Source: Blastocatellales bacterium | Lineage (GTDB): Bacteria; Acidobacteriota; Blastocatellia; RBC074 | Assembly (NCBI GenBank): GCA_050247435.1 | Contig: JBFWUF010000008.1 | Span: forward strand, 22,704-86,703 | DNA: 64,000 nucleotides | Reading direction: 5' to 3' | Shown here: positions 40,596-58,028 of the stretch, in pieces | How positions within the stretch are numbered: position 1 is the stretch's first letter | Layout of the letters: each line of letters begins with the position of its first letter | Program-made: the position numbers and the translations under genes | The notes under the pieces: model-generated | Databases searched by the model: none | What the model saw: only the letters and a program-made list of their open reading frames with translations | What the model was told of the DNA's origin: nothing

Positions 40596-41972
40596 ATGAA
40601 ACGCATTCTGATCATTGATGACGACCGCGCATCGTGCAACCTTTTGCGTGAGTTGTTCAAATCCCAGGGCTGGGAAGCTGAAACCGCGCAGACGCCGCAA
40701 CAGGCGTTGGATTTGGTCTCGCGCGGGAAATTCGATCTGCTGCTGAGCGACATCAACCTGCAAGCCGAACTGTCGGGCATTGATTTGTTGAAGCAGTTGC
40801 GAGGCGAGGCTCCGGTGATCCTGATGACGGGCTACGGCACGCTCGACACTGCTGTCGCCGCTGCGCGTGAAGGCGCATGGGACATCATCTCGAAGCCGAT
40901 TAAGCCGCACGAACTGCTGGCAATGGTCGAGCGAGCGATTGAAAGCAAGTCGAGGCAGGATGAAGAATCCGAGGCTGCCAACGCGCCGGATGATAATCAG
41001 GCGATGGTCGGACGCTCGCCCGCCATGCTCGAACTTTATAAACAGATCGCCAGGGTTGCGCCGTCGCGTTCCACCGTGCTGATCGTTGGCGAATCTGGCA
41101 CGGGCAAGGAACTCATCGCCCGTTCGATTCACCAGCACAGCGAGCGCCCCAAAGGCCCCTTCGTGCCGGTCAACTGCGGCGCGCTGACGGAAACCCTGCT
41201 CGAAGCCGAACTCTTCGGATTCGTGAAAGGCTCGTTCACCGGCGCGGCGGCGGATCGTAAGGGGCTGTGGGAAGAGGCTGCGGGCGGCACACTCTTCCTG
41301 GATGAGATCGGCGAAACGTCTCCGGCGATGCAGGTCAAGCTGCTGCGCGCTCTGCAGGAGAAAGAGATTCGCCGCGTCGGCTCGACAAAAAATATCAAGG
41401 TGGACGCCCGCGTCGTCGCCGCAACCAACCGCGACCTGGAAAAAGAAGTCGCGGCGAAAACCTTCCGCGAGGATTTGTTCTACCGCCTGAGCGTGGTCGC
41501 GTTGCAGGCACCTGCATTGCGCGAGCGACGCAGCGACATCCCGCTGCTCGCCGCACGGTTTCTCAGCAGCGCGGCGGAAAACGCGCGGCGCGACACACTC
41601 ACGCTTCCCGAGGAAACCATCAAGACGCTGGCCGCTTACGACTGGCCGGGCAATGTGCGCGAATTGGAATCAGCGATTGAATATGCCGCGCTGCAATCTC
41701 GCGGAGCCGAGATCACGCCCGCCGACCTGCCGCCGAAACTGCAATCCGACGAAGTGCGCGAGGCCGCCGAGCGTTCGCCGCTCACAGCCTTGTTTGACGA
41801 TCTCCCCACGCTCGATGAACTCGAACGCCGCTACCTGCTGCACGTCCTGGAAGTGGCCGGCGGCAGTCGAACGAACGCCGCAAAAGTGATGGGCATTGAC
41901 CGGCGCACGCTGTACCGCATGGCGGAACGTTTCAAAATCAGGCTGGATGAGGGCGAGAACGAGAGCGAATGA
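40596..41972 (+). CDS. sigma-54-dependent Fis-family response regulator (NtrC-like enhancer-binding protein)
   Basis: REC (ILIIDDD, LLLSDINL). AAA+ sigma-54 interaction domain (GESGTGKE, ESELFGFVKGSFTGA, TLFLDEIG). C-terminal Fis-type HTH (TNAAKVMGIDRRTLYR). Confidence 0.9.
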   Translation: MKRILIIDDDRASCNLLRELFKSQGWEAETAQTPQQALDLVSRGKFDLLLSDINLQAELSGIDLLKQLRGEAPVILMTGYGTLDTAVAAAREGAWDIISKPIKPHELLAMVERAIESKSRQDEESEAANAPDDNQAMVGRSPAMLELYKQIARVAPSRSTVLIVGESGTGKELIARSIHQHSERPKGPFVPVNCGALTETLLEAELFGFVKGSFTGAAADRKGLWEEAAGGTLFLDEIGETSPAMQVKLLRALQEKEIRRVGSTKNIKVDARVVAATNRDLEKEVAAKTFREDLFYRLSVVALQAPALRERRSDIPLLAARFLSSAAENARRDTLTLPEETIKTLAAYDWPGNVRELESAIEYAALQSRGAEITPADLPPKLQSDEVREAAERSPLTALFDDLPTLDELERRYLLHVLEVAGGSRTNAAKVMGIDRRTLYRMAERFKIRLDEGENESE

Positions 41973-41974
41973 GT

Positions 41975-43207
41975 CTACCTCTTGGCGCTTTTGTGTTTGA
42001 CTTTTACGATCTGGCCATCGTCCGCGCTGATTCCAATTTCGGTGACTTCCATCTCTGAGCGAATCTTGAACTCGTAAACAAGCTTGCCGTCTTTGCGTTT
42101 CATCTCGCTGCTTTCGACTGTGCCGGGAACCGTTTTGAGCGCGATCGTTCGCGCTTCCTCCCGGGTCATTTTTATCGCGGCGGGCGAAGTCGTTTTAACG
42201 GTTGCGACGGCTGGCTGAGAATCCAGCGGCGGTTTGGCCTCTTGAAGCACTGGGGACGACGTCGGCCTGGCGACTTCCGCGGCGATGGCTGCCAATGCCA
42301 GGCTGCGCCCTCTCGTAATCGCCCCTTGATCGAGAATGTTGCCCGCCGCGTCCACCGCCCGGAAAGAGAGTTTTTCGGGCGCTATCTCAACGTACATAAA
42401 ACTGCCAACTTCGTCGTTTCCGGCGGCAAAGAACTCGCTTCGGCGGTTGAGGTCGCCGCGTCGCAACTTTCCGCTGCCCGCGCCCGCGACAAAATACTGA
42501 ACGCCTTGTTGCGGTTTTACGCGCTCGTAAACGTGATCGTGGCCGGAGAAGACCGCAGCCACTCCGAAGCGCACGAAGAGCGGCTCAAGCTGCCTGCGCA
42601 GATTCAGGTCCGAGCCGTGCGTCCTTCCTGACGAGTAAAGCGGGTGATGAAAATAAACGATTTTCCAACTCGCTTTTGACGCGACCAGCGCATCCGTCAG
42701 CCATTTCAATTGCGCGCTGTCGAACGCCGTAGAATCGAGCGCGAAGAACTCAACCAGACCGTCGCCCTTGGTGAATGAATAGTAGGCTCGCCCGCCCATG
42801 TTGAACTGAGAATAGTTGATCTGCGCTTCGCGTCCTCTCCGGACGTCGTGATTGCCGAGCGAGGCGTAAAAGTGAACGCCGCTTCGCAACAACTCCGCAT
42901 ACGGTTTTTCAAACTTCGCCGGGAGGTCAGCCGAATTTCCGTCGGGATAAATGTTGTCGCCCAGTGTTAGCGCCGTGTCGAAATGGTATTCCATTTGATA
43001 AACGGCCATTCGTCTGGCTAGGGCGTATTGATCGCTGTCGCCGGTTCCCATATCGCCGAACGCAATGAATCGCACAACAGGCTCCTGCGTTCGATCAACC
43101 TTCCGAACATTATTGACGAGGCTGCCGCCGTTGCTCTGTGCGAAAGCGTATGCCGTGAATGCTAAAAGCAGGGCGATAGAGTTGAGGATCCCGATTCTCC
43201 TGTTCAT
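41975..43207 (-). CDS. secreted calcineurin-like metallophosphoesterase with C-terminal PepSY domain
   Basis: Signal peptide. Motifs GDMG, GDNIY and GNHD. The C-terminal ~70 aa (EARTIALKTVPGTVESSEMKRKDGKLVYEFKI...) are PepSY-like. Confidence 0.8.
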   Translation of the reverse strand: MNRRIGILNSIALLLAFTAYAFAQSNGGSLVNNVRKVDRTQEPVVRFIAFGDMGTGDSDQYALARRMAVYQMEYHFDTALTLGDNIYPDGNSADLPAKFEKPYAELLRSGVHFYASLGNHDVRRGREAQINYSQFNMGGRAYYSFTKGDGLVEFFALDSTAFDSAQLKWLTDALVASKASWKIVYFHHPLYSSGRTHGSDLNLRRQLEPLFVRFGVAAVFSGHDHVYERVKPQQGVQYFVAGAGSGKLRRGDLNRRSEFFAAGNDEVGSFMYVEIAPEKLSFRAVDAAGNILDQGAITRGRSLALAAIAAEVARPTSSPVLQEAKPPLDSQPAVATVKTTSPAAIKMTREEARTIALKTVPGTVESSEMKRKDGKLVYEFKIRSEMEVTEIGISADDGQIVKVKHKSAKR

Positions 43208-43492: not shown

Positions 43493-46400
43493 TTAGTCAC
43501 CCGTGGAAGCCAGTTCTCCCCCATCGCCATATTTATCCGTTGTAGCCAGTACCGCTGCCTCTCCGTATTTCAGATATAACGCGGGGATCACGATCATATT
43601 CAGCAAGGTCGAAGTGACGATGCCGCCGAGAATGACGACGGCCATCGGCTGCTGAATCTCGCGGCCCGGCTGGCCGGCGCCAAGCGCGAGCGGGACGAGG
43701 CCGATGCCGGTGACAAGCGCCGTCATCAGGATTGGGCTCAAGCGTTCCATTGATCCCTGCACAATCGCCTCGCGGAAGCTCAGGCCTTCTTCTTCCATCA
43801 AGTGTTGGTAATGGCTGATGAGCATGATCCCGTTGCGCGTGGCGATGCCGAAGAGCGTAATGAAGCCGACGAGCGAGGCAATCGAGAGCGTGCCGCCCGA
43901 CAGGAAGACCATCACCACGCCGCCGATCAGCGACAGCGGCAGGTTCGCCATCACCAGCAGCGCCGGGCGCACCTGTTTAAGCGCCATATAAAGTAGCAGG
44001 AAGATGCCGCCGACAGCGACAATGGAAAGCAACGTGATCTGGCGCGCAGCCTTCTCCTGCGCCTCGAACTGCCCGCCGTACTGCACGAAGTACCCTTGTG
44101 GCAGCGCGACTCTGCCGGTGATAGCGGCGCGTACGTCGGCGATGACGCTCCCCAAATCCCTGCCCGCGACGTTGGCCTGGACAATGATGCGTCGCTGCAC
44201 GTTTTCGCGGTTGATCGTGTTCGGCCCCTGATCGGTGCGGACTTCGGCGACCTGGGCGACGGGGACTTTCGCGCCCGAGGGCGTGTCAAGCAGCGTGCGG
44301 CTGATCGCCTCGACAGACTGGCGGGCGGAATCGTTGAAACGCACCATCACGTCGTATGTCCGCTGCTCTTCCAGCACCTGTGAAACTGCTTCGCCATTGA
44401 AGGCGATTTCAACCGTTTGGGCGAGATCCGCGGCGCTCAAGGCCACGGCGGCGGCGGCTTGGCGGTTCAGGTTGATCTGCACCTGCGGCACGCCGACCTG
44501 CGGCTCGACCAGCAGGTCAACGACGCCGGGCACGGTCGCCATCGCGTCACGAATCTCCCCCGCTTTGTTGCGGAGCGTGGCGAGGTCAGGGCCGAAGAGC
44601 TTGATCGCAATCTGCGCGCGCGTGCCGGAAAGCAGGTGGTCAATGCGGTGCGAGATGGGCTGACCGACTTCCGCCTCGACGCCGGGAATCTGCGCGAGTT
44701 TCTGCCGCACTTCTTCCATCACTATGGAATGTTTCCGGTCGGCTTCTTTTGTGACGACTTCAAGCTCGCTGGTGTTGACACCCGCCGCGTGCTCGTCGAG
44801 TTCGGCGCGCCCCGTGCGTCGGGTCGTCGTGACGACTTCGGGAACCTGGCGCAGCACTCCCTCGATGATATTGCCGATGCGGTTCGACTCCTGCAGCGAT
44901 GTGCCGGGCGGCAGGTTCGCGTTGATGTTCAGCGTGCCTTCGTTGAAGGGCGGCAGGAACTCGCGGCCCATTAACGGGAATAACGACACAGCAATGAGCA
45001 GCATCATCGCCGAAGCCCCAATGATCCGGTACGGGTGGCGCAACGTCCAATCGAGCAGACGCGCGTAGTGGCGCTTGAGCCAGGTGACGAGCCACGAATC
45101 CTTTTCGTCGTGCAGCACTTCGGCGCGGCGCAGCAAGTAAAAGCACAGCACTGGCGTGACGGTCAGCGCGACGACAAGCGAGGCCGCAACCGAAATGATG
45201 TAGGCGAAGGCGAGCGGCGCGAACATCCGGCCTTCAAAACCGCTTAAGGAAAAGAGTGGCAGGAAGACCAGCACGATAATCAGCGTGGCGAAGACGATTG
45301 AATTCCTGATCTCGCTCGACGCCCGGAAGATAACCCTGGCGACGGGTTCGGGCGCGGGTAAGTGCGCGTTCAGCTTCAAACGGCGGAAGACGTTCTCGAC
45401 ATCCACAATCGCGTCGTCAACCAACTCTCCGATGGCGATGGCCAGCCCGCCCAGCGTCATCGTGTTGATGCTGATGCCGAAGTAACTCATCGCCAGAATC
45501 GCGGTGATGAGCGAGAGCGGGATCGCCGTCAGACTGATGAACGTCGTGCGGAAGTTCATCAGGAACAGGAACAGCACGACGGTCACGAGAACGCCGCCTT
45601 CGACGAGCGCGCGGTTGACGTTGCCGATGGCTCGTTTGATGAAATCGGCCTGCTGGAAGGCTTTTGTGTCAATCATCACATCGGGCGGCAGCGAAGTTTT
45701 CAGGTTCGCCAGCGTGGTTTCAATTTGTTCGGAGACCTCAAGTGTATTGGCGTTCGGCTGTTTCTGGATTGTCGCCACGACCGCCGGTTGCCCGTTGAAG
45801 CTGCCGTCGCCGCGCTTGAGCGCCGCGCCCGTTTTCACCTCCGCCACATTCTTGACGAGGATCGGCGCGCCGTCGCGCACGGTGATGACTGAGTCCGCCA
45901 AATCGTCGGGCGAGTAGACGCGCCCGCGCCCGCGAATCAGAAACTCTTCGTTCGGTTGTTCGAGGAAGCCGCCCGCCGCATTCGCGTTGGACGCGCTCAC
46001 GGCCTTCGTCACTTGATCGAGCGTCAGGCGATAGTCCGCGAGCTTCGCCGGATCAACCAGCACCTGATATTGCTTCTTCTGCCCGCCGATAATCATCACC
46101 TGCGAGACGCCCGCGACGCCCAGCAGACGCGGGCGCACGACCCAGTCGGCGAGCGAACGCAGTTCCATCGGCGATGTCTGTTTGCTTGTCATCGAGATGA
46201 GCATGATCTCGCCCATCGTCGAGGAGATCGGCCCCAACACGGGCGGCGTCACTCCGGTGGGCAGACGCACTTGCTGCAATTTCTCGGTGACAAGCTGGCG
46301 CGCGCGGTAAATATCCGTGCCAAAGCTGAACTCGACGAAGACGATGGAGATGCCGATGGCCGAATTGGAGCGCACGCGAAAGACGCCCGCCGTGCCGTTC

Positions 46401-46618
46401 ATTGCCGATTCAATTGGCAGCGTAACCAGCGCTTCGACCTCTTCAGGCGCGAGGCCGTGCGACTCGGTGAGAATCGTCACGGTCGGCGCAGTCAGGTCTG
46501 GAAAGACATCTACCGGCGAGCGTAATGCGACGATGCCGCCGTAAATCAGCAGCGCGACGGCGGCCACGATCACGAGCAATCTGTTATTGAGCGACCACTG
46601 GATGATTTTGTTCAACAT
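43493..46618 (-). CDS. czcA: CusA/CzcA-family heavy-metal efflux RND permease (paralog 2)
   Basis: 1041 aa with HME-RND architecture. N-terminus LRSPVDVFPDLTAPTVTILTESHG. Confidence 0.95.
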   Translation of the reverse strand: MLNKIIQWSLNNRLLVIVAAVALLIYGGIVALRSPVDVFPDLTAPTVTILTESHGLAPEEVEALVTLPIESAMNGTAGVFRVRSNSAIGISIVFVEFSFGTDIYRARQLVTEKLQQVRLPTGVTPPVLGPISSTMGEIMLISMTSKQTSPMELRSLADWVVRPRLLGVAGVSQVMIIGGQKKQYQVLVDPAKLADYRLTLDQVTKAVSASNANAAGGFLEQPNEEFLIRGRGRVYSPDDLADSVITVRDGAPILVKNVAEVKTGAALKRGDGSFNGQPAVVATIQKQPNANTLEVSEQIETTLANLKTSLPPDVMIDTKAFQQADFIKRAIGNVNRALVEGGVLVTVVLFLFLMNFRTTFISLTAIPLSLITAILAMSYFGISINTMTLGGLAIAIGELVDDAIVDVENVFRRLKLNAHLPAPEPVARVIFRASSEIRNSIVFATLIIVLVFLPLFSLSGFEGRMFAPLAFAYIISVAASLVVALTVTPVLCFYLLRRAEVLHDEKDSWLVTWLKRHYARLLDWTLRHPYRIIGASAMMLLIAVSLFPLMGREFLPPFNEGTLNINANLPPGTSLQESNRIGNIIEGVLRQVPEVVTTTRRTGRAELDEHAAGVNTSELEVVTKEADRKHSIVMEEVRQKLAQIPGVEAEVGQPISHRIDHLLSGTRAQIAIKLFGPDLATLRNKAGEIRDAMATVPGVVDLLVEPQVGVPQVQINLNRQAAAAVALSAADLAQTVEIAFNGEAVSQVLEEQRTYDVMVRFNDSARQSVEAISRTLLDTPSGAKVPVAQVAEVRTDQGPNTINRENVQRRIIVQANVAGRDLGSVIADVRAAITGRVALPQGYFVQYGGQFEAQEKAARQITLLSIVAVGGIFLLLYMALKQVRPALLVMANLPLSLIGGVVMVFLSGGTLSIASLVGFITLFGIATRNGIMLISHYQHLMEEEGLSFREAIVQGSMERLSPILMTALVTGIGLVPLALGAGQPGREIQQPMAVVILGGIVTSTLLNMIVIPALYLKYGEAAVLATTDKYGDGGELASTGD

Positions 46619-46623
46619 AGATC

Positions 46624-47928
46624 TCAGGTCTCGTGCGTGTGCGCGCCAGCATCCGCCGGGCGCAGTTCCTGCAGCTTGATCTGATACGCGCCCTGCGTGA
46701 CGACGCGCTCACCCGGCTTCAGCCCCGCCAGTACGGCCACCTTGTCGCCGTACTCATCGCCCAACTGCACCTCGCGCCGCTGGAATTCTTCGCCCGACAG
46801 CAACACATAGACAATCTTTTTGCCTTCGTGTTCGAGTACTGCTTCCTTTGGAATGGTGACGGCCTCGACGCTCTCCCCGGCGTCGAGCCGCACATCGGCC
46901 TGCATCCCAATGCGCAGCGCTCGCGCCTGATTCGGAACTTCAAAGACGACTGTCGCGGCGCGCGTCTGCTCGTTGACGATTGACCCGATGTTGATAACCA
47001 CGCCTTTGAACTCAGTCCCGGAATAAGCGGGCGTTGTGAAAACTGCGCGCGTCCGGTTGCCGAGCCGCGACAGATCGCGCTCGAAGATCGGGGCTTCCAC
47101 CCAGACAGTTTCCAGGTTGGCGATCTCAATGATTGCTTCGCCGGGCGCAACCTGTTCGCCGATATTTTTATTCACCTTCGTCACGATGCCGCTGATCGGC
47201 GCTCGCGCCAGGTAAGTGCCGCCGCCGTTTCCCACGTTGATTTTGACAGGCTCAACTTTGTCGGCGGCGCCAAGCGCCTTGCGCCGCGCCGTTGCCGCAG
47301 CGAAATTGGCCTGCGCTGATTTCAGTTCGGCTTCGGCGACATCAAGTTGCTGCTTCGGCAGAATCCCTTGCTCAAACAGTTTGGCGGTGCGTTCGGCTTC
47401 ACGGCGGGCCAGATCCAATCGCGCACGGGTAGACTCGATCTCTCCATCAGCGGTGCGCCGTTCGGCGTCAAGACGCGCCGCGTCAAGAGCGACCTGCGCA
47501 TTCTGCGATTCTGCCTGCGCCGTCGCGGCTCGTACCTGAGCCTGCTCGGCGGAAGTCGAGGTCTGTTGCAGCGTGGCAATTATCTGCCCGGCTGAAACGT
47601 TCTGGCCGATGCGGGGCAGTTGCCCGCGCAAGATGATCCCGCCGACCGGCGGCGCGACAAGAGCCTGATGATTGGCCGCCGCAATGACGCGGCCTGTGGC
47701 AGTGATCTGTCGCGCAAGCGGGCGCGATTCGGCCTGCGCCAGCTTCATTCTGATGAGCCATTGCTGCTCCATCAAAAATTTCACTGTGCCAGTCGCCTCC
47801 TGAGCGGCAGGCGCGGCAGCTATTTCTCCCTGTGAAGGCCGACGTAAGAATAAGAAGCCTGCTGCGGTGGCAATGGCGAGAAGCACAACAACTGCGAAGA
47901 TGGCGGTGGGGCGAATGTTTTTAGTCAT
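46624..47928 (-). CDS. czcB: RND efflux periplasmic adaptor (CzcB-like, paralog 2)
   Basis: 434 aa membrane-fusion protein with a TM anchor and a coiled-coil hairpin. Directly upstream of czcA. Confidence 0.85.
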   Translation of the reverse strand: MTKNIRPTAIFAVVVLLAIATAAGFLFLRRPSQGEIAAAPAAQEATGTVKFLMEQQWLIRMKLAQAESRPLARQITATGRVIAAANHQALVAPPVGGIILRGQLPRIGQNVSAGQIIATLQQTSTSAEQAQVRAATAQAESQNAQVALDAARLDAERRTADGEIESTRARLDLARREAERTAKLFEQGILPKQQLDVAEAELKSAQANFAAATARRKALGAADKVEPVKINVGNGGGTYLARAPISGIVTKVNKNIGEQVAPGEAIIEIANLETVWVEAPIFERDLSRLGNRTRAVFTTPAYSGTEFKGVVINIGSIVNEQTRAATVVFEVPNQARALRIGMQADVRLDAGESVEAVTIPKEAVLEHEGKKIVYVLLSGEEFQRREVQLGDEYGDKVAVLAGLKPGERVVTQGAYQIKLQELRPADAGAHTHET

Positions 47929-47933
47929 TGAAC

Positions 47934-48416
47934 CTACTCCACTTTGAAATCGGCGAGCGGCAGACGCTCATCAAGCCTGGTGTTTTTGATGTGGAACTCG
48001 ATGTCGTAATCGCCGCGTTGGGGGATCATCAAGTCGGCGACGTAAATGCCTGTCACCTTGCCCACGCGCGCTTTTGTCTGCACGGCTTGCGCGCCGCCTT
48101 TGGCGCGAACCGTGAGCGTCACCTCGGCCTGCTCAACCGGCGACCCGTCGCGGAGGTCGGTCAAGTGGATGCGGAACTGGCTCGGCTTGGCCGCTTTCAA
48201 CGGCTCATACTCAAAGAAGTTCTCGACCCGCTCGGTGAACTCCGTGCGCGCGACGGCCTCCTCAGCTTCTTCTTTCGGGCTTCTGGTTCCAGCCGTTTGC
48301 CACGCGCCGCATGCTGCCAGACTGATTGAGACTGCCAGCAGCAGGAGCGCCCCCGCCCTCTGACGACCGGCGGTAGTTTTTGCAAGGGAAATGAAAGACG
48401 AACGGGATGGCATCAA
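47934..48416 (-). CDS. lipoprotein, possible Ig-like periplasmic metal-binding accessory protein
   Basis: Lipobox LAAC. Mature domain ~120 aa, predicted beta-rich. Lies between the M56 protease gene and czcB. Family not recognised. Confidence 0.5.
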   Translation of the reverse strand: MMPSRSSFISLAKTTAGRQRAGALLLLAVSISLAACGAWQTAGTRSPKEEAEEAVARTEFTERVENFFEYEPLKAAKPSQFRIHLTDLRDGSPVEQAEVTLTVRAKGGAQAVQTKARVGKVTGIYVADLMIPQRGDYDIEFHIKNTRLDERLPLADFKVE

Positions 48417-48430
48417 TTGGAATCACCTTT

Positions 48431-49501
48431 CTATTTGAGAACGTGGATCAGAGCCTCGGTCGCTTCGTGAACGGCAAGCGGCGCGGCAAGGGAAACGACA
48501 AGCAGTGTGAGTACGGAGAGCGTGGCAATAAAGACGGCTTTGTAACCATACGGGCGTGAGAGCGCAGCCAAGCGCGTAGGAGCCGGCAGCGCGTCACTCA
48601 AATCCAGCAGCCGCTGAACGCGCCGCTCCAAGTCCAGCGCACTGACGGGGAAGAACCCTGAAGCAATTGCCGGAGCAGGCATAATTGTCCTGCGCTTCAG
48701 CTTCACCAGCGCCTCGGCGAGGTCGAGTGGGACTGCCGTCCGCGCCGCAGCCATTTCGTCACACAGCAACTCCACCTGTTCCGCCCGGTATTTTAGAATC
48801 AGGCGCGTGAGCGGGAAGGCCAGCGAGGCGTAACCGAACAGCGACAACACGAGCTTCGCCAGATTATCGCGTCGCGAATCATGCGCCGCCTCGTGAGCAA
48901 TGACCCCGCGCAGTTCATCCGGCGTCAGCATATTGAGCAGCCCCGACGACAGCACCAGCCGTGAGCGGTGAAAACCCCACACGAACGAAAAAGGGTGGTC
49001 GCTCATTACCAGCCCGATCCGCAACTTGCTATGCGCGGAGGCGCTTTTAATTAGCGCCAGTTGCTCCGGCAACGGCGGCTGTGCCTTAACGTCCAGCCGT
49101 TCAATCAACGCGTTCAACCGCAAGTAGCCGCGCACGCTAAGCCAAGCCACTGAAATTGCTGAGAGCAACACCAGCGACACTGTCACATAAGCGAGCGCCG
49201 GTTCCAGCTTCGCCGTCAGTTCTCCGAGCAGGTGAAGTTGATGGAGCGGCTGCGGGTGCGCGGCGTCAAAGGCTGCTTCGCCCAGCCACCATTCCGGCAG
49301 GAAGGCCGCCGACGTCAGCCAGGCCGCAACCAGCGGCGGCAGGACGACCGCCGCCGAATAAATCCGAGTCAGCGTTTCAGGCTGCCATTGCCGCCAGCCG
49401 CATTCAGTCGCCGCGCGTACGGCGATGGCGACGGCAAAGCCGCATAGAGCCAGCAGCGTGCTGAAGAGAATAAAATTTTCGATGACGGCGATGAATCTCA
49501 C
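48431..49501 (-). CDS. M56-family (BlaR1/MecR1-like) membrane zinc metalloprotease lacking the C-terminal penicillin-binding sensor domain
   Basis: 356 aa. Four TM helices. HExxH at VIAHEAAHD. No PBP/transpeptidase-like sensor domain. Overlaps the blaI-like stop. Confidence 0.8.
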   Translation of the reverse strand: MRFIAVIENFILFSTLLALCGFAVAIAVRAATECGWRQWQPETLTRIYSAAVVLPPLVAAWLTSAAFLPEWWLGEAAFDAAHPQPLHQLHLLGELTAKLEPALAYVTVSLVLLSAISVAWLSVRGYLRLNALIERLDVKAQPPLPEQLALIKSASAHSKLRIGLVMSDHPFSFVWGFHRSRLVLSSGLLNMLTPDELRGVIAHEAAHDSRRDNLAKLVLSLFGYASLAFPLTRLILKYRAEQVELLCDEMAAARTAVPLDLAEALVKLKRRTIMPAPAIASGFFPVSALDLERRVQRLLDLSDALPAPTRLAALSRPYGYKAVFIATLSVLTLLVVSLAAPLAVHEATEALIHVLK

Positions 49502-49947
49502 TTGCCCTGTTTCCTCCGGCCTTGTGCCTCGCGTTTGGCGCGTATCATCTCTTCGAGTTGGTCGAGTTTGCCAGCATCCGTGCCCACGAGGTCAACGAAA
49601 GCCGAAATCGCCGGCGCATGAAACTGGCCAATCAACGCGCCCAGCACCTCCTCGACCATCACGCGTTCGAACTCCTCGTGGGAGTAACGCGGCGAATAAA
49701 CGAAGGCCTTGCCCTGCTTCTCGCGCAGCAGAAAGCCCTTGCGGTGCAGGCGATCGAGCGTTGTCAGCACCGTCGTATGAGCGATCTCGCGGCGCTTTCT
49801 CAGCTTTTCTTCGACCTCGTTAACCGTCCGCGGCGATTCTCGCCAGAGCAGTTCCATTACGGCAGTCTCCAATTCACCGAGGACATGGCTCGCGCCGCGT
49901 CTGCCGGGTTTGAATCCGCGTAAAGTGATTTTCGGTCGCATAGACAT
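49498..49947 (-). CDS. BlaI/MecI/CopY-family transcriptional repressor
   Basis: Winged helix (LGELETAVMELLWRESPRTVNEVEEKL...HTTVLTTLDRLHRKGFL) and a C-terminal dimerization domain. ATG at 49947 (MSMRPK). Confidence 0.85.
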   Translation of the reverse strand: MSMRPKITLRGFKPGRRGASHVLGELETAVMELLWRESPRTVNEVEEKLRKRREIAHTTVLTTLDRLHRKGFLLREKQGKAFVYSPRYSHEEFERVMVEEVLGALIGQFHAPAISAFVDLVGTDAGKLDQLEEMIRAKREAQGRRKQGK

Positions 49948-50095
49948 ATCAGTATGCTGGCTACAACTCTTGATCTTTGTAAGACTACTGCTGATAGTTA
50001 CATGGCGGAAAGAGGGAGTCAATGGCTCATTCTCCTTGCATTCGCGGTTCGCTGAGATGGCACAGAGCAACGTGAAATGGGCTGTGCCATCTCTT

Positions 50096-53000
50096 TCAAA
50101 AGATAGCTGCTTCCACGCGCGATTCCCGCTCCGAATCCAGTGGAGACTTTCTTGTTAACTCCGCCATTGAAGGCGGCTTTCCGAACTTCAAATAAAGCGC
50201 AGGCAGCACGATCATATTGAGCAGCGTTGAAGTGAGCAGCCCGCCCAGAATCACCACGGCCATCGGCTGCTCCAACTCGCGTCCGGGTTTGCCCGCGCTC
50301 AAGGCCAGCGGCAACAAACCAAGTCCCGCCGTGAGCGCCGTCATCAGGATCGGCGAGAGCCGCTCCATCGCGCCGCGCGCCACCAGATCGCGCCCGAACT
50401 TCATGCCCTCTTCCGCCATCAGGTGGTTGTAATGCGTAACGAGCATAATCCCGTTGCGCGTGGCGATGCCGAAAAGCGTCACAAAGCCGACGAGTGAAGC
50501 GACGGATGTTTCGCCCTCACTCGCAATCAACACCGCCGCCACGCCGCCAATCAGCGCCAGCGGCAGGTTCGCCATCACAAGCAGCGATTGCCTGAGCGAG
50601 CGGAACGCGAGGAAAAGCAGCAGGAAGATGCCCACGACCGCAGCGGCGCTGAGCAGCAAGATTTGGCGAAACGCTTTCGACTGCGCTTCGTACTGTCCGC
50701 CGTAAACGACGTAGTAGCCCGCTGGCAATTGCACTTTTTCACTGACGCGACGCTGGATGTCGCCGACCACTTCGGTCAGGCTGCGCTCGCCCGTGACGTT
50801 GCACGTGACGACGATGCGGCGCTGGGCGTTCTCGCGGTTGATCGTGTTTGGGCCGTTGACGATCTCGATATCGGCGAGCGCGCCGAGCGGGACTTTCGCT
50901 CCGACAGGCGTGTCCACGAGCGTCTCGCGCATCGTTCGCAGATCGCTCGCCGCGTTCGGTTCGTAGCGGACGAGGATGGCGAACGATTTTTGCCGCTCGA
51001 ACACGTCGGAGACTTTCACGCCGTAAAAAGCCGCGCGCATCATCTCGGCCAAGCCAGCGCTGTTGAGGCCGTATTGCGCCATCGCGTCGCGCTTGAAGCT
51101 GACATGAACTTTCGGCACACCGGTCTGTTGTTCGACGCTGAGGTCGGTGATGCCCGGCGCATCGGCCATCGCGCGTTGAATCTCTACGGCTTTTTCCGCC
51201 AGCGCATCCAGGTCGGGGCCGAAGAGCTTGACGACAATCGTGGCCGTCGTGCCCGACAAAACTTCTTCGATTCGCTCGGAGATGAATTGATTGATGCCGA
51301 AAGCGAAGCCTTTGAAGTCGGCCAGCTTGCGACGCACGTCCTCGATGACTTCATCGCGCGTGCGGTCGCTCTCTTTCAAAGCGACGTGCAACTCGGTGAG
51401 ATTCGGGCCGAAGGTGTCTTCGCTAAGTTCGGCGCGCCCTGTCTGCTGCGTGACTTTGACGACTTCGGGGATTTCAGCCAATCGTTGTTGGGCGAGCGCG
51501 CCAACCCGCATGGACTCTTCCAGCGAAAGACCGGGCACGCCGCTCATGCGTATGATCAGATTGCCTTCGTTGAATTCCGGCAGGAACTCTCCGCCGAGAA
51601 ACGGTGTGGCGGCGAGTGTGAGCGCAAGCAATGCAGCCGAGACGGCGATGATCGCGCGCGGATACCTGAGCGCCGGATTGATGATTCGCGCGTAAGCTCG
51701 CTTGAGCAATCGCACCGTCAACGTCTCCTCCGACCTCACTCTTCCGTTCATCGCCAATCGCGGCAGCAGCGCGTAACAGAGCGCGGGCGTGATTGTGAGC
51801 GCGACGACGAGCGAAGCGAGGATCGAGATGATGTAAGCAAGCCCGAGCGGGGCGAAGATGCGCCCGGCCAGGCCGGAAAGTGAAAAGATCGGCAGGAAGA
51901 CCAGCGCGACAATGGCCGTCGCGTAGACCACTGAACTGCGCACTTCGCTCGACGCGTGATAGATCACCGAGAGGACTGGCTCCGGATGTTCCTTCAAGCG
52001 GTTTTCGCACAGCCGCCGCCAGACGTTTTCGACATCAATAATCGCGTCGTCCACAACTTCGCCAATCGCTATCGCCAATCCGCCGAGCGTCATCGTGTTG
52101 ATCGTCGCGCCGAACCAGCGCAGGATGATGATCGCCACCAACAACGAGAGCGGAATCGCCGTCAGGCTGATCAACCCCGCGCGCCAATTGAAGAGAAACA
52201 ACGCAAGCACGAGCACCACCAGCAACCCGCCTTGCAGGATCGCCCAGTTGATGTTGGAGATTGAACGTTCAATGAAATCGGCCTGGCGAAAAATGCCGGG
52301 GTCCAGCACGACATCGCGGGGCAGCGCGGCCCTCAACTCGCCGAGCGCCGCTTCGACCGCGCGCGTCGTCTGAAGCGTATTGGCCCAGGGCTGTTTGAGT
52401 ACGATCACAATCACACTCGGTTGGCCTGCCGTCGAGGAGTCGCCAACTTTGTATTCGGCGCCGAACTGTACGCGCGCGACCTGCCCGATCTTCACCGGCA
52501 GATTGTTTTTGACCGCGACGACGGCATTCTCCAGATCGCTCAAGGCGCGCACGCGGCCTTCGCCCTGAATGACCATCGTCTGCCCGGCGGTGTCGAGGAA
52601 GCCTGCCGCCGCATTTTGATTCGCCGACCGCGCGGCGTTCATCACCTCGCCCAGCGTCACACCAAAATCCTTCAACTTCGCCGGGTCAACGATGACCTGA
52701 TACTGCCTGACCTCGCCGCCGAAGACGATGATCTGCGAGACGCCCGGCACGGCCAGCAAGCGCGGGCGGATCGTCCAATCGGCGAGCGTGCGCAAATCCA
52801 TCAACGAAGTTTCTTTGGCCGTCAGGCTGACGCGCAGCAGCGTGCCGACTGGCGGGCTGATGGGCGTCATCTGCGGCTCGTTCGCGCCTTCGGGCAAACG
52901 CGCGCGCGCGATCTGCAACTTCTCGCCGACCAGTTGCCGCGCGCGAAAGATGTCCGTGCCTTCCTCAAAAGTGCAGGTGACGACCGCGAGGCCGGCGGCT

Positions 53001-53257
53001 GAAGACGAACGAATCACTTCCAGATTGCTCGTGCCGTTGAGCGCCGTCTCAAGCGGCAGCGCGATGAGTTGCTCGGTCTCTTCGGCGGAGAAGCCGGGCG
53101 CTTCGGCCTGAATCACGACTTGCGGCGGCGCAAAATCCGGGAAGACATCGAGCGGCGCATTCATTGCCGTCCGCATGCCGAAGACTATCAATAGCGCGGC
53201 GAGCACGATGACGACCAGCCGGTTGCGCAACGACCAGAGGATGATCCGGTTGAGCAT
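50096..53257 (-). CDS. czcA: CusA/CzcA-family heavy-metal efflux RND permease (paralog 3)
   Basis: 1053 aa. N-terminus MNAPLDVFPDFAPPQVVIQAEAPG. Confidence 0.95.
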   Translation of the reverse strand: MLNRIILWSLRNRLVVIVLAALLIVFGMRTAMNAPLDVFPDFAPPQVVIQAEAPGFSAEETEQLIALPLETALNGTSNLEVIRSSSAAGLAVVTCTFEEGTDIFRARQLVGEKLQIARARLPEGANEPQMTPISPPVGTLLRVSLTAKETSLMDLRTLADWTIRPRLLAVPGVSQIIVFGGEVRQYQVIVDPAKLKDFGVTLGEVMNAARSANQNAAAGFLDTAGQTMVIQGEGRVRALSDLENAVVAVKNNLPVKIGQVARVQFGAEYKVGDSSTAGQPSVIVIVLKQPWANTLQTTRAVEAALGELRAALPRDVVLDPGIFRQADFIERSISNINWAILQGGLLVVLVLALFLFNWRAGLISLTAIPLSLLVAIIILRWFGATINTMTLGGLAIAIGEVVDDAIIDVENVWRRLCENRLKEHPEPVLSVIYHASSEVRSSVVYATAIVALVFLPIFSLSGLAGRIFAPLGLAYIISILASLVVALTITPALCYALLPRLAMNGRVRSEETLTVRLLKRAYARIINPALRYPRAIIAVSAALLALTLAATPFLGGEFLPEFNEGNLIIRMSGVPGLSLEESMRVGALAQQRLAEIPEVVKVTQQTGRAELSEDTFGPNLTELHVALKESDRTRDEVIEDVRRKLADFKGFAFGINQFISERIEEVLSGTTATIVVKLFGPDLDALAEKAVEIQRAMADAPGITDLSVEQQTGVPKVHVSFKRDAMAQYGLNSAGLAEMMRAAFYGVKVSDVFERQKSFAILVRYEPNAASDLRTMRETLVDTPVGAKVPLGALADIEIVNGPNTINRENAQRRIVVTCNVTGERSLTEVVGDIQRRVSEKVQLPAGYYVVYGGQYEAQSKAFRQILLLSAAAVVGIFLLLFLAFRSLRQSLLVMANLPLALIGGVAAVLIASEGETSVASLVGFVTLFGIATRNGIMLVTHYNHLMAEEGMKFGRDLVARGAMERLSPILMTALTAGLGLLPLALSAGKPGRELEQPMAVVILGGLLTSTLLNMIVLPALYLKFGKPPSMAELTRKSPLDSERESRVEAAIF

Positions 53258-54564
53258 CAGCGTTTCTCCTCTTTCTCGTCATCTTCGCTTTCAATCTGGC
53301 CTTTCAACGTCTCGCTGCGCAACGAAGCCGCGCCGACCGACACCACTTTCTCACCTGCTTTGAGTCCGCTGCTGATGACGACACTGTCGCCGTTGCGCTC
53401 GCCCAGGGTGACGCGGCTACGCTGGTAAACGCCCGGCTGCACCTCGACGAAGACAATGGACTGGCTCTCTTCGGTAAGCGCGGCGGAAGCCGGGATGAGC
53501 AGCGCTTGTATGCGTGCGCCGCCCGGAATGCGCGCTTCGGCTGTCATCCCGATTTTGAGCGCGCCGTTAGGATTGCCGGCTGCGAAGATCACCGTCGCGT
53601 TGCGATTGGCCGGGTCAATCACGCCGTTGATAGTGACGAGTTGGCCGGTGTATGCGCGGTCGGGATCGGCGGGCGTCGTAAATGTCACGCGCGCGGCGCG
53701 GCGCACCGCCCGAAGCTGGCTTTCGTGAACGGCGACCTCAATCCAGACGCGGCTCAAATCAACAATCGTCAACAGACTTTTCGCCGGGTCAATTTGCTGT
53801 CCGGCGGTAAGTTCGGCGGCGACGACCATGCCGGAAATCGGCGCTCGCAGTGGGACGCGCGGCGGCGTGCTGGTTTGTTGTTGCTGGGCTGCTTCGGATT
53901 GCGCTCTGGCCGCTTCGTACTGTTCTTTGGCGCGCCTGGCTCCATCGAGGCTGGCCTGCGACTGCCGCAACTTGAACTCGGCGGTCTGAAGTTGTTTGAG
54001 CGAAATCGCGCCGCCGTCGTAGAGCCGCTTGGCGCGCTCCACTTCAATCTGTTGAAACGCGACCTCGTGCCGTGCCTGCTCAATCGTGGCCTGAAGCTGC
54101 GCCGCCGTTGCGCTCAATTGCGCCGCCGTCCCGCCGAACTGCGCCGCCGCCGCCCTCAATTGCGCCTGCTCGGCGGCGGTGAGCATCTGTTCGACTTCGG
54201 CGATGACCGCGCCCTGTTTGACGAAGCTGCCGATGCGCGGCAAGCGAGCCGGATCGGCGACCAAGCGCCCGGCGAAGGGCGAAAAGACTTGCGCTTCGCC
54301 GCCCGCGCGCGCCGTCACCCGCCCAATGGCCGTGATGGTCGAAACAATTTCCTGCTCGGTCGCAGCGGCGGTTTGAATGCCATTGGCTTTGATCTGCTCC
54401 GGCGTCAAACGAATCGCGCCATCCGGCGCATCGTCTGTCTTTGTCTCAGCCTCGCGCGCCGGTTCGGGTTTGCGGTCTGTTTTTGAACCGCAGCCCGCGC
54501 ATAACAAGCTCGAGCCGCAAAGCAGCGCGCTCAACAACACAATGATGAAATTGCAATTTGGCAT
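53257..54564 (-). CDS. czcB: RND efflux periplasmic adaptor (CzcB-like, paralog 3)
   Basis: 435 aa. Lipoprotein-like N-terminus (LLCAGCGSK). Coiled-coil plus beta-barrel domains. Confidence 0.85.
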   Translation of the reverse strand: MPNCNFIIVLLSALLCGSSLLCAGCGSKTDRKPEPAREAETKTDDAPDGAIRLTPEQIKANGIQTAAATEQEIVSTITAIGRVTARAGGEAQVFSPFAGRLVADPARLPRIGSFVKQGAVIAEVEQMLTAAEQAQLRAAAAQFGGTAAQLSATAAQLQATIEQARHEVAFQQIEVERAKRLYDGGAISLKQLQTAEFKLRQSQASLDGARRAKEQYEAARAQSEAAQQQQTSTPPRVPLRAPISGMVVAAELTAGQQIDPAKSLLTIVDLSRVWIEVAVHESQLRAVRRAARVTFTTPADPDRAYTGQLVTINGVIDPANRNATVIFAAGNPNGALKIGMTAEARIPGGARIQALLIPASAALTEESQSIVFVEVQPGVYQRSRVTLGERNGDSVVISSGLKAGEKVVSVGAASLRSETLKGQIESEDDEKEEKR

Positions 54565-54663: not shown

Positions 54664-56109
54664 TCAGCTTGCGATGGGAGCAGGCAGCGTAGCGACAAAC
54701 GTACTGCCGCATTGGTCGGAGTGGCGCAGCTCAAGGCATCCGTGATGCGCCTCCGCAATCCAGCGCGCGATGGAAAGGCCGAGTCCCGCGCCTCCGTTCG
54801 CGCAGGTTTCGGTTCGCGTGCGTGATTTATCCGCGCGGTAGAAACGCTCAAAAATGCGCGACTGGGCTTCCGGCGGAATGCCCGCGCCGGTGTCGGTTAC
54901 GGTGATTTCGTGCGTGGAATCGTGTTGCGCCAGACTGACCCGGACCGCCCCGCCTGCCGGCGTGTATTTGACGGCATTATCGAGCAGGTTTAAGAGCATT
55001 TGCCGCAGCAAGCCTTCGTCGCCGCGATACGGCGTTTCGCCTGCCGGCGCGACCTCGACTTTCACGCCTTTTCGTTCTCCCAGTATTTGCGCGGCCCGCG
55101 CGGTCTCCGCCACCAATTCATCGAGGTAAAGGTTTCTGCTTTGCGGCTTGCGTTGTCCGGCGTCGGCGCGCGCGAGCGTGAACATGTCCTCGACGATGCG
55201 CGTCAGATGCCGCGTCTGTTGATTGATCATCGCCAGCGCCTCACGGTATTCGCCCGCTTCGCACTGCTCCTGATCCATCGTCACTTCGCCTGCCGTCCGC
55301 ATCACATAAAGCGGCGTGCGCAACTCGTGCGAAGCATCGGCCATAAATTGTCGCTGTTGTTCAAAGGCGCGCTGTTGTTGTGCAAAAGTGTCGTTGAGGC
55401 GCGCGAGCAGTTCGTTGAAAGTCGTGGCGAGTTGACCGAGTTCATCGCGCGGGTTGATGACCGGCAAACGCTGGTCGAGGTTTTCGGCGCTGATCCGCCG
55501 GGCGCGTTCCGACATCGCTACCACCGGCGCCAGGCTCTTGCGCGCCAGAAACCAACCGATTGCCGCGACTCCTAGCAGGGCAAAAGGAACGGCCAGGACG
55601 AGGATGCCGCCGAGCAATTCGAGGTCGTCCGACACATCTTCATACGGCTGGCTGATGACCAGGAAGATGGCGCTCTGCGGTCCGGTTTTGATGCGCTCCA
55701 CCGCCACCCGCAAACCATCATCAACACCGGTTTGCGCTTCCGGCAGCGAGTAATATTGCCGCCCCTCCCGGTCGAGCGCCGGGATGCCGGCGGGCAGCGT
55801 GGCGTGAACCTCGCCGAGCGTCTTTTCTTTCAGCAAGCCGCCGTTGTGATCGAAGAAGGCCACCGCCTGGCGCGGGAAATAGGATTTGCGCAGCGCGCTC
55901 CCCGCCGCATACTCATCCGTCTCGCCCTCCTCTTTTTCATGCAAGATGAGCCGCACAACGCCTTCGCTGGCGACGCGCAATCCTGCATCCAACCGGCTTT
56001 GCAGCTTGCGCGCCATCAGCGCGTAGACGCCCATGCTGAAAACGATCAGGACCAGCGCCAGCAAACCGACGTACCACAACGTCAATTTTGTGCGGACGGA
56101 GTCAATCAT
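54664..56109 (-). CDS. heavy-metal sensor histidine kinase (paralog 2)
   Basis: Same architecture as 23796-25226. N-terminus MIDSVRTKLTLW (copy 1 has MFDSVRTRLTLW). ATG at 56109 overlaps the RR stop (ATGATTGA). Confidence 0.9.
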   Translation of the reverse strand: MIDSVRTKLTLWYVGLLALVLIVFSMGVYALMARKLQSRLDAGLRVASEGVVRLILHEKEEGETDEYAAGSALRKSYFPRQAVAFFDHNGGLLKEKTLGEVHATLPAGIPALDREGRQYYSLPEAQTGVDDGLRVAVERIKTGPQSAIFLVISQPYEDVSDDLELLGGILVLAVPFALLGVAAIGWFLARKSLAPVVAMSERARRISAENLDQRLPVINPRDELGQLATTFNELLARLNDTFAQQQRAFEQQRQFMADASHELRTPLYVMRTAGEVTMDQEQCEAGEYREALAMINQQTRHLTRIVEDMFTLARADAGQRKPQSRNLYLDELVAETARAAQILGERKGVKVEVAPAGETPYRGDEGLLRQMLLNLLDNAVKYTPAGGAVRVSLAQHDSTHEITVTDTGAGIPPEAQSRIFERFYRADKSRTRTETCANGGAGLGLSIARWIAEAHHGCLELRHSDQCGSTFVATLPAPIAS

Positions 56110-56791
56110 TGGTCTCCTCGCCTTCGGCGGCCAGCACATAGCCCGCGCCACGCCGCGTGCGAATCAGTTTCAGCGCGTAACCTTCATCGAGTTTGCGCCG
56201 CAACCGTTGGACGTAGACTTCGATTGAATTGGTGAATGGATCGAACGATTCATTCCAGACGTGCTCGGCGATGTCGGCGCGGCTCACCACTTCACCGGCG
56301 CGCCGGGCCAGATACTCCAGCAACGCGTACTCTTTGGCCGTCAATTCGATCTGTCGATCTCCACGCCTCACCTGCTGCGCGCGCGTGTCGATCACCAGAT
56401 CGGCGACGGTCATCGTCTCAGGCCGCAGCGCCTGCCCGCGCCGCAGCAACGCCCGCACGCGCGCCAGCAGTTCATGAAAGTCGAACGGTTTAACCAGGTA
56501 ATCATCCGCGCCGAGGTCGAGTCCGGCGATGCGATCCTGCACCGCGTCGCGCGCCGTCAGCATGAGAATCGGCGTGGTTGCTCCTGCCGCTCGCAATTCG
56601 CGGCAGACCTCAAAACCATCCTTCAGCGGCAGCAGCACATCGAGAATGACGAGGTCATAGTCGTTGACGCTCGCTAGATAAAGAGCCTCCTCGCCGTCGG
56701 CGGCGACATCCACGGCGTAAGTCCGTTGCCGTAGCCCTTTCGCCAGCATCCGCGCCGCGTTGGGTTCGTCCTCAACCAGTAAAATGCGCAT
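56102..56791 (-). CDS. OmpR-family response regulator (paralog 2)
   Basis: About 80% identical to the RR at 25231-25926 by eye, including an identical recognition-helix region (IEVY.QRLRRK). Confidence 0.9.
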   Translation of the reverse strand: MRILLVEDEPNAARMLAKGLRQRTYAVDVAADGEEALYLASVNDYDLVILDVLLPLKDGFEVCRELRAAGATTPILMLTARDAVQDRIAGLDLGADDYLVKPFDFHELLARVRALLRRGQALRPETMTVADLVIDTRAQQVRRGDRQIELTAKEYALLEYLARRAGEVVSRADIAEHVWNESFDPFTNSIEVYVQRLRRKLDEGYALKLIRTRRGAGYVLAAEGEETND

Positions 56792-56864: not shown

Positions 56865-58028
56865 CTAAATGCCGTTGATCATATCGCCGGTCACCGCATT
56901 GTAGAGGAGCGTCACACCGTCAGCCAGAACGACTTCGTACACGGTTTCCGTATGACCTTTTATTTGCTTTAGCTCCATTTCCATTACGGTTTGGCTGCGA
57001 CTCGTCTCAGCCTTGCGGATGATCTCCTGGAAGGTCAGCAGCCTGCTTTTCTCCAGCCCGAGCGGAGAGAGGACTGCGAGTTTGTTCGGAGCCTTTGGCT
57101 TCGTTCCCAGGAGCTTGCCTGAGGTAGCCTCAATTTCATACTCGTTGCCCGAAGAGAAGGTCACATCCCAGGTCGTGACCGAACGGGCCGGATCCCATTC
57201 GAGATCAACTTTGAGCACCTCGCCGCTACCGCCTTCGGCCTGTGCGCGCCTGATCGCTTCCACCACGGTGATATATCCCGCCTCGGCTGAAAGCCCTGCG
57301 GTTGTGCGAGCCTGCGGTGTCGAGGCTTTGGCAATCGGCGCTTCCTTCACCTCGTCGTCGTCTTTCTTGGCCTTCGCCAGCTTATCCTCTTTCTTCTTTT
57401 TCTCCTTCGATGAGGACTTGCCCCGATCTTTGTCGTCCGAGGCCGAACGCGCGCTCGAATCTCCTCGATCCGCTCGCGAGCCATAGACGTAAGCGTAAAG
57501 CTCCGGGTGTTCTTCCGGCGTGCCGAAGCCATAGGATTGCTGCTCAGCCCAGGCGCGATCTTTTGCCCAGCCCTGAACGCGCATCCGGTAAAGCGCGGCA
57601 ATGCTGCCGGCGCGATGCTTGCCAGCCGAGCAATGCACGTAGACTGGCTCTTTAGCGTTTTGGATGATCGAGAGAATTGCGCTGACGGCCTTGTCATCGG
57701 GAGTGTCGTGGCCGGTCATCGGGAAATTGAAATACTTGATCCCGTTGCGCTGGCTGACTGCGGGTTCATCGGCGTTCGGGTTATCCCTCAGATCAATGAT
57801 CGTGCGTACGCCCATTGCCGCAAGGCTTTCAATGCCGGTTGGTGTTATGGCCCCGCCGCGAAAGTAGCGCTCCGTCACCCGCCCGAAATTCTTCACGCCT
57901 TCGACCTGCTCGCGCCCGCTCTGCGCGAATGTTGCTGGTGAGGAGAGGACGACGAATGTCAGGAGTGAAAGAATGATCTGCGGCAGCCGCTGGCCGGCGG
58001 TTTTACTCCGGTTGATTAACGCGCTCAT
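56865..58028 (-). CDS. secreted Cys-based phosphatase (CX5R) fused to two C-terminal PepSY-type domains
   Basis: Signal peptide. Catalytic loop [10 protein letters not shown], paralogous to 22987-23598. Lys-rich linker. Two PepSY-like repeats at the C-terminus. Confidence 0.75.

Follow-up and report, generated by a model that had tools for sequence, protein, structure and literature searches.

The only characterized metal-responsive switch of the BlaI/BlaR type found in our literature searches is PetR/PetP of Synechocystis sp. PCC 6803, in which the repressor PetR is degraded only when the protease PetP and copper are both present (Garcia-Canas et al., bioRxiv 10.1101/2020.07.31.226407; commentary PNAS 2021, PMC7896320). 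The PetRP regulon comprises petE, petJ, and two small genes with the operator core GAC-N5-GTC, and two conserved methionines in the 14-residue loop between transmembrane helices 2 and 3 (TM2 and TM3) of PetP were suggested as ligands (bioRxiv 10.1101/2020.07.31.226407). PetRP drives no metal-homeostasis response, and BlaR homologues elsewhere "remain to be elucidated" (review PMC10141476). The same searches returned no BlaI/M56 pair controlling a resistance-nodulation-division (RND) pump or any other metal pump. We describe here a locus in a 64,000-nucleotide stretch of DNA (the window) from a Blastocatellales bacterium, contig JBFWUF010000008.1, in which a BlaI-type repressor and an M56 membrane protease without the penicillin-binding sensor domain of BlaR1 ("sensor-less") precede the genes for a lipoprotein and a heavy-metal efflux (HME) RND pump, czcB2 and czcA2. 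The locus is probably a proteolytic switch that responds to metal and controls the downstream pump, as judged from its sequence and from that of its relatives. A preliminary description had proposed a metal-efflux switch at this place. Its link to a Czc-type pump was borne out by the conservation of CzcA and of a second operator-like site in related loci, but a switch of this kind is not unprecedented, as PetR/PetP is known.

Like PetRP, the window pair combines a BlaI/CopY-family repressor with a sensor-less M48/M56 protease of four transmembrane helices, the two genes having overlapping stop and start codons. The candidate ligands likewise lie in the TM2-TM3 loop, and the repressor has no CopY metal site. 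Metal-dependent removal of the repressor by the protease has been reported for PetRP and is proposed here. With PetP compared by its description, the two systems differ in the loop (14 residues with two methionines, which suits Cu(I), against about 32 residues with three histidines plus a His/Glu tail here), in the operator (GAC-N5-GTC against ACTAY-N5-RTAGT), and in the output (petE, petJ, and two small genes against an HME-RND efflux operon).

The second point of comparison is Staphylococcus aureus BlaR1, in which extracellular loop 1 (EL1; residues 56-96) fills the active site of the sensor domain until the antibiotic displaces it, helix alpha3 "directly links EL1 and the metalloprotease domain," and the protein autocleaves at S283|F284 (PMC9834060). 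The window protease shares with BlaR1 and MecR1 the membrane and gluzincin fold, the HExxH...E signature, the topology, and the placement of EL1 directly before the helix leading to the protease. The repressor shares with BlaI and MecI the winged helix and a palindromic operator with CTAC/GTAG-like half-sites, and a phenylalanine occupies the presumed P1' position in both repressor and protease, as in BlaR1/BlaI. Unlike BlaR1, however, the protease has no penicillin-binding domain, is 12-13% identical, and would control a metal pump instead of a beta-lactamase or PBP2a. The spacing of the half-sites also differs, with five nucleotides between pentamers here and TACA-N2-TGTA as the BlaI/MecI operator in S. 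aureus. The closest solved relative of the repressor is BlaI of Mycobacterium tuberculosis (Rv1846c; 2G9W, E=1e-14, residues 23-135, 113 residues aligned). M. tuberculosis BlaI has the half-sites TAC[G/T]AC, similar to the half-sites ACTAC and ACGAC of the present operators, and it regulates blaC and ATP-synthase genes. Its partner protease, Rv1845c, is said to lack a penicillin-binding domain, and we know of no metal link and no periplasmic histidine cluster described for this pair.

The five genes of the window locus lie on the minus strand. The repressor gene (blaI; 49498-49947, with an alternative ATG at 49941) encodes a 149-residue winged-helix protein of the BlaI/MecI family, and its stop codon overlaps the GTG start codon of the protease gene (48431-49501) in the sequence GTGA. 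The protease has 356 residues and four predicted transmembrane helices. It is followed by a YtkA-like ("FixH family") lipoprotein of 159 or 160 residues (47934-48413 or 47934-48416), by the periplasmic adaptor (membrane fusion protein) gene czcB2 (46624-47928; PF16576, PF13437, and TIGR01730), and by the HME-RND permease gene czcA2 (43493-46618; TIGR00914). The gaps from the protease gene onward are 14, 5, and 5 nucleotides, and a scan of the window found no terminator-like site between the repressor gene and czcA2. The genes appear to form one five-gene operon. These open reading frames match the genes and coordinates given in the preliminary description. A protease of identical sequence has been recorded from a metagenome-assembled genome of Blastocatellales, Acidobacteriota.

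A profile of 29 protease homologues retrieved 80 loci in species-representative genomes, all seemingly of the Blastocatellia/Pyrinomonadaceae type, with a few bins labeled otherwise. The proteases of these loci are 36-72% identical to that of the window. Counting for each neighbor only the loci whose contig was long enough, the repressor gene lies directly upstream of the protease gene in 76/76 loci and the lipoprotein gene directly downstream in 69/74. A CzcB orthologue belongs to the module in 58/61 loci and a CzcA orthologue, 75-88% identical, in 53/54. In most loci a gene for an outer-membrane factor (PF02321) stands between the lipoprotein gene and czcB; it is missing from the window and from eight loci. 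The expected co-conservation of the pair with Czc pumps in other genomes was thus found. The upstream flanks vary among genomes, with a K+ transporter in L002 and FeoAB in L081, and because of this the conserved unit, which is repressor, protease, lipoprotein, (outer-membrane factor), CzcB, and CzcA, excludes the upstream pump. The pair had been described as wedged between two CzcAB pumps; the downstream pump is indeed co-conserved, but the upstream one (czcA1, 50096-53257, and czcB1, 53257-54564, both minus strand) is incidental and has its own two-component system, an OmpR-type response regulator (56102-56791, minus) and a HAMP/HisKA kinase (54664-56151, minus).

The repressor scored 97.4 bits on PF03965 (Penicillinase_R; cut-off, 22.6), covering profile positions 1-114 of 115, which supports the earlier BlaI-type assignment. 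It failed the clinical BlaI/MecI exception models of NCBIfam (23-49 bits against cut-offs of 180-250) and TIGR02698 (CopY_TcrY), its best NCBIfam match (E=2.5e-15), on which it reached 56.9 bits against a cut-off of 121.95. Repressor conservation was measured over 79 sequences. The window repressor has no cysteine, nor do 66/79 family members, which makes CopY-style metal sensing unlikely. A CopY-like repressor was rejected on account of this lack of cysteine (no CxCx4CxC) together with the subthreshold score, and the comparison with CopY drawn in the preliminary description did not hold. The sole highly conserved histidine, H57, is part of the recognition-helix motif AHTTV. The protein begins with a conserved basic arm, RPKITLRGFKPG (RPKITLRGFKPGxRGA; residues 1-22, 49882-49947), which has no counterpart in alignments to solved BlaI/MecI structures, as these start at residue 23 or later. 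The arm could provide extra DNA contacts or be a recognition element for the protease. In the C-terminal half, beyond the winged-helix domain, S115 and F117 are invariant (79/79) and mark a candidate cleavage site. In S. aureus BlaI the cut falls between Asn101 and Phe102, likewise in the C-terminal half; the likeness is one of region.

The protease matched both PF01435 (M48; 42.2 bits) and PF05569 (M56; 32.7 bits, cut-off 31). The catalytic zinc motif HEAAH, read in the sequence at residues 203-207 (48881-48895, minus) and lying in a predicted cytoplasmic loop between TM3 and TM4, is present in 199/199 family sequences, and among these H203, E204, H207, E244, C247, and D248 are invariant. An AlphaFold 2 model of the protein (predicted local distance difference test score [pLDDT], 79; predicted TM-score [pTM], 0.78) gave as its top Foldseek matches in PDB the cryo-electron microscopy structures of S. 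aureus BlaR1 (8EXQ, 8EXS, and 8EXP; probability 1.0, TMq 0.46-0.49), followed by Ste24. A PDB sequence profile search with the M56 alignment returned only an HtpX fragment, so that Pfam and the fold search are what links the protein to BlaR1. The protein ends 14 residues past TM4, and Pfam detected no transpeptidase domain; because it stops this soon after the last transmembrane helix, there is no penicillin-binding domain. The M56 profile, the HEAAH motif, and the missing penicillin-binding domain agree with the earlier view of a sensor-less M56 protease that does not sense beta-lactams. S281 (at least 90% conserved) and F283 (invariant) lie in a linker modeled with low confidence, and an S-x-F motif is therefore invariant or nearly so in both repressor and protease.

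The proposed sensor consists of two segments predicted to be periplasmic. The TM2-TM3 loop (codons 69-100; 49202-49297, minus), the equivalent of BlaR1 EL1, carries H82 (49256-49258), H87 (49241-49243), and H90 (49232-49234), conserved in 197/199, 197/199, and 198/199 members of the protease family, respectively. The C-terminal tail after TM4 (codons 343-356; 48434-48475, minus), which stands in place of the BlaR1 sensor domain, carries H345 and E349 (PLAVHxxxE), each conserved in 198/199. The TM2-TM3 loop averages 0.9 Lys plus Arg, 4.3 Asp plus Glu, and 3.1 His, and the cytoplasmic stretches on either side of it, loop 1 and the first part of loop 3, hold about 4 Lys plus Arg each. As these charge counts follow the positive-inside rule, the histidine loop and the His/Glu tail are placed in the periplasm. 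We tentatively propose that H82, H87, and H90 together with H345 and E349 form a metal sensor whose site bridges loop and tail, a proposal that we rate as plausible but just short of evenly balanced. The clade with this histidine loop forms a compact group of 45 clusters at E<=1e-30 in a library of 1.84 billion proteins and is separated from the surrounding superfamily of short M56 proteins, which has 889 clusters at 1e-10 and 18,301 at 1e-3.

Alignment of 75 regions upstream of blaI revealed a family-wide element, cGACTATTGACnGTAGTtg, with the pattern ACTAY-N5-RTAGT, which occurs within 250 nucleotides before the blaI start codon in 72/75 loci. A BlaI operator is thus present. In the window it is ACTATCAGCAGTAGT (O1; 49984-49998, minus), situated in the 148-nucleotide spacer between czcA1 and blaI, and it is the sole exact match in the 64-kb window. 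Where O1 is present it always lies on a promoter element. We infer from the sequence a putative sigma-70-type operon promoter at 49994-50022 (minus), with the -35 element TTGACT (50017-50022), a 17-nucleotide spacer, and the -10 element AACTAT (49994-49999), which overlaps the left half-site of O1. In L081 and L084, which belong to the subclade of the window, TTGACA is followed after 17-18 nucleotides by GACTAT as the -10 element, placed as in the window. In most other loci the operator is centered on the -35 element TTGACA, with a TAtaCT box about 17 nucleotides further on. The preliminary description had named a different operator, the dyad TACAA-N10-TTGTA (49962-49981) with TTACATG (49998-50004). 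These sequences exist in the window, yet they occur in none of the 75 upstream regions, including those of the nearest relatives, and were rejected; the dyad adjoins O1, and O1 overlaps TTACATG by one base only. A one-mismatch match to the operator at 33882-33896 was taken as chance, as it lies about 950 nucleotides from the nearest gene start.

A second operator-like site, ACTACCGCCGGTCGT (O2; 48363-48377, minus), lies 54 nucleotides past the protease stop codon and has one mismatch, GTCGT for GTAGT. It falls in lipoprotein codons 13-17 (K-T-T-A-G-R), in the n-region of the signal peptide. A site of this kind is found 42-62 nucleotides past the M56 stop codon in 75/77 loci; 33 are exact and 42 share the same A-to-C change, and only 2.3% of random 125-nucleotide windows of the same loci contain a match with one mismatch or fewer. 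In a distant clade O2 occupies a spacer of 35-100 nucleotides upstream of the lipoprotein gene. In the clade of the window, the third codon positions of O2 are conserved, and there is therefore constraint on the DNA; the site may be coding sequence that doubles as a repressor site. Given the conservation of O2 where the efflux genes begin, the repressor probably controls these genes as well and has a small regulon that includes them.

The downstream pump is of the metal type. CzcA2 scored 881.9 bits on TIGR00914 and CzcA1 791.9 (cut-off, 701.45), CzcA2 was far below the cut-offs of multidrug RND models, and CzcB2 exceeded the cut-off of TIGR01730 with 172 bits. CzcA2 resembles ZneA (583 bits) more than CusA (533 bits). 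The methionine triad of CusA, M573/M623/M672 (PMC8092243), aligns with N, T, and H in CzcA2, and a CusA-like Cu(I)/Ag(I) pump was rejected for the absence of this triad. TM4 of CzcA2, AIGELVDDAIVDVEN (395-409), has the form AIG-X3-DDA-X3-VEN. At the positions of ZneA D654 and D658 CzcA2 has H657-R-I-D-H661, with H657 and H661 present in 53/53 linked orthologues, and its porter domain reads EHAAGVN, the second histidine of HAEGVH being replaced by asparagine. The ZneA site residues and the motif table were taken from supplement file 9 of PMC7060636. In these respects the pump resembles NieA of Cupriavidus neocaledonicus (nieIC-cep-nieBA), with which it shares the TM4 motif, HRxDH at the ZneA D654/D658 positions, and a histidine first in HAxGV; the nie operon also contains a gene for a "conserved exported protein" (PMC7060636). 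By motif comparison alone, AIG-X3-DDA-X3-VEN and HRIDH of the NieA class are present and HAAGVN replaces HAEGVH. Unlike the locus described here, the nie operon has nieI and no described BlaI/M56 pair (PMC7060636). CzcA1 and CzcA2 are 54% identical, and CzcA1 has ERIEE where CzcA2 has HRIDH; the two probably have different metal preferences. CzcA1 stands under a two-component system and CzcA2 under the proposed protease switch, two regulators for two paralogues.

The lipoprotein matched PF13115 (YtkA-like), and its lipobox cysteine, Cys35, is conserved in 72/72 homologues. A fold search assigned it the CrdA fold, of the CrdA/CopC-like periplasmic metal-binding class, and a PDB sequence search gave insignificant matches only. 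It has one invariant histidine (H83), about 10 invariant carboxylates, and no conserved methionine. The Met-rich Cu(I) motif of CrdA, MMxEMPGMxxMxEM (PMC9182242), is absent, as is a Cu(II) two-His site. The gene order is that of Helicobacter pylori crdA-crdB-czcB-czcA (HP1326-1329). H. pylori CrdA is Met-rich and has no histidine, which suits copper, in contrast to the lipoprotein with its single invariant histidine and many carboxylates, and the H. pylori crd operon is controlled by the two-component system CrdRS, a histidine kinase with its response regulator, instead of by proteolysis. Because of the CrdA fold, the shared gene order, and O2, we propose that the lipoprotein is a periplasmic metal-binding accessory of the pump and not the partner of the sensor.

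From gene content, synteny, operators, residue conservation, and fold matches we infer the following cycle of repression, metal binding, and cleavage. When no signal is present, a dimer of the BlaI-family repressor would occupy O1 on the operon -10 element and O2 where the lipoprotein gene begins, and the blaI-M56 pair and the efflux genes would be held back. A periplasmic divalent metal would be bound by H82, H87, H90, H345, and E349, tying the loop to the tail and shifting TM3, as displacement of EL1 does in BlaR1. The shift of TM3 would activate the cytoplasmic HExxH...E domain, and the active protease would cut the repressor, probably at Ser115-Ala116|Phe117; it may also cut itself at Ser281-Gly282|Phe283. 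Derepression would raise the levels of lipoprotein and pump, periplasmic metal would fall, and the switch would reset. A histidine-seeking divalent metal is expected. Nickel and cobalt are the leading candidates, an identification that we regard as rather doubtful, with Zn(II) and Cu(II) as lesser candidates.

Several observations weigh against this account. The M56 score of the protease is barely above the Pfam cut-off, and AlphaFold 2 is least confident in the histidine loop itself (residues 87-100; pLDDT <50). The C-terminal H-x3-E is also carried by distant sensor-less M56 proteins with very different loops, and the tail motif could have a structural role and supply no ligands. The putative blaI promoter matches the consensus poorly and escaped a generic promoter scan of the window, and the operon may be read through from czcA1. 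O2 of the window is mismatched and inside coding sequence, so its function is uncertain. Klonowska et al. proposed the NieA class as nickel exporters, and this nickel assignment is a bioinformatic proposal only (PMC7060636). Finally, all 80 loci come from metagenome-assembled genomes.

Two other readings place the signal elsewhere than in a metal bound by the protease. The preliminary description had suggested sensing through the lipoprotein, which would bind a metal or envelope signal and relay it to a protease without a sensing function of its own. The lipoprotein gene does follow the protease gene in nearly all loci, and its product shares its fold class with periplasmic metal-binding proteins and has an invariant histidine and many invariant carboxylates. 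This is nevertheless the weaker option and a rather improbable one: the protease has five near-invariant periplasmic His/Glu residues of its own, three of them in the counterpart of the BlaR1 signaling loop, PetRP functions without a lipoprotein of this kind, and CrdA, the closest structural relative of the lipoprotein, is a component of a pump operon and not a sensor partner. In the distant clade, moreover, the operator-bearing spacer lies between the protease and lipoprotein genes, so that the latter stands with the genes of the pump. An unlikely alternative is that the signal is not a metal but envelope or membrane stress, pH, redox, or an organic pump substrate, with the histidines serving a structural or pH-sensing role. 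Histidines can act as pH sensors, the H-x3-E tail is common to very different M56 proteins, and the TM4 motif of CzcA2 resembles a multidrug RND motif. Against these stand the score of the pump, which passes the curated HME threshold and falls well short of those for multidrug pumps, and the porter-domain histidines at the positions where ZneA binds zinc. The accessories and neighbors in the family are also metal-themed (CrdA fold, HupE/UreJ, Zip, P-type ATPase, and ArsR), and PetRP, the only characterized sensor-less relative, responds to a metal.

The metal could instead be sensed by the repressor itself, as CopY-family proteins leave DNA on binding Cu(I), with the protease removing released or damaged repressor or maturing it. 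CopY_TcrY is the best NCBIfam match of the repressor, but the score is less than half the cut-off, most repressors of the family are without any cysteine and so without the CxCx4CxC site, and the only highly conserved histidine is in the recognition helix. Sensing by the repressor would also leave the invariant periplasmic residues of the protease unexplained, and we consider it very unlikely. For PetR it is not known whether degradation also involves copper binding by PetR (review PMC10141476), which the PetRP authors think unlikely. Least probable of all is that the pair regulates only itself and is near the pump through residence in a metal-resistance island. O1 is the only exact operator of the window, and the region, which holds a transposase gene and three RND pumps, resembles a resistance island. 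However, the short gaps without a terminator-like site, the synteny kept down to 36% identity while the flanks differ, and O2 at the head of the efflux genes disfavor a repressor that regulates only itself.

The proposed switch would explain the control of a NieA-type pump in an abundant soil lineage (Blastocatellia/Pyrinomonadaceae). With five invariant candidate ligands, an operator pair, and a clear output in a metal pump, the family is a sharper test case than PetRP, and sensor-less BlaR-type sensing is here directly testable by mutagenesis. Matches to "blaI/blaR1" in soil resistome surveys should be read as regulators of antibiotic resistance with caution.

The candidate EL1 ligands differ by clade: methionine in PetP, three histidines in the present clade, and Cys/His-rich motifs such as DHCxGHxxGHxHFC in distant clades. 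The distant sensor-less M56 proteins (P0266-P0389) differ in having Cys/His-rich sequences such as HLHLGHPYHHLC and DHCEGHTEGHIHFC as their TM2-TM3 loops, and many carry H-x3-E after the last transmembrane helix. The distant loops hint at a wider sensor class. It is possible, if on balance somewhat doubtful, that sensor-less M56 proteases form a broad unrecognized class of transmembrane metal sensors with EL1 as an exchangeable ligand element; the present clade would then be the first to govern an HME-RND pump directly, probably with specificity for nickel or cobalt, and metal RND pumps would have a third mode of regulation in addition to two-component systems and extracytoplasmic function (ECF) sigma/anti-sigma systems.

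Both pump clusters of the window are flanked at one end by a gene for a PepSY-domain phosphoesterase, a calcineurin-like metallophosphoesterase (Metallophos+PepSY; 41975-43207, minus) after czcA2 and a PTPase/PepSY protein (DSP-PTPase+PepSY; 56865-58028, minus) preceding the response regulator gene of the upstream cluster. A DDE transposase gene (58194-59453, plus) divides the metal-pump region from a third RND pump (59563-62634, minus) and its adaptor (62631-63998, minus). The third pump scored 565.8 bits on TIGR00914, under the cut-off of 701.45, and multidrug-type models fit it better. Past the end of the operon and convergent with it, 38271-41972 (plus) encodes a hybrid histidine kinase (HAMP-PAS-HisKA-HATPase-REC) and a sigma-54-dependent response regulator.

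The module of the nearest relatives, L081 and L084 (1-9500), sits in a metal island that also holds a ZIP transporter, a P-type ATPase, a P-II protein, an ArsR-family regulator, FeoAB, and more CzcBA pumps. A major facilitator superfamily (MFS) transporter gene follows czcA in several loci (L002, L081, and L084). A gene pair that is not in the window, encoding a HupE/UreJ_2 protein (PF13795) and a 207-residue single-TM protein with a His-rich C-terminal part, adjoins the module in at least 12 relatives. Examples are L003:7963-9422, L013:7407-8835, and L019:8062-9441, and the pair follows czcA in L048, L066, and L075. In at least seven relatives the HupE/UreJ-family pair is preceded by a separate operator and promoter of the same kind.

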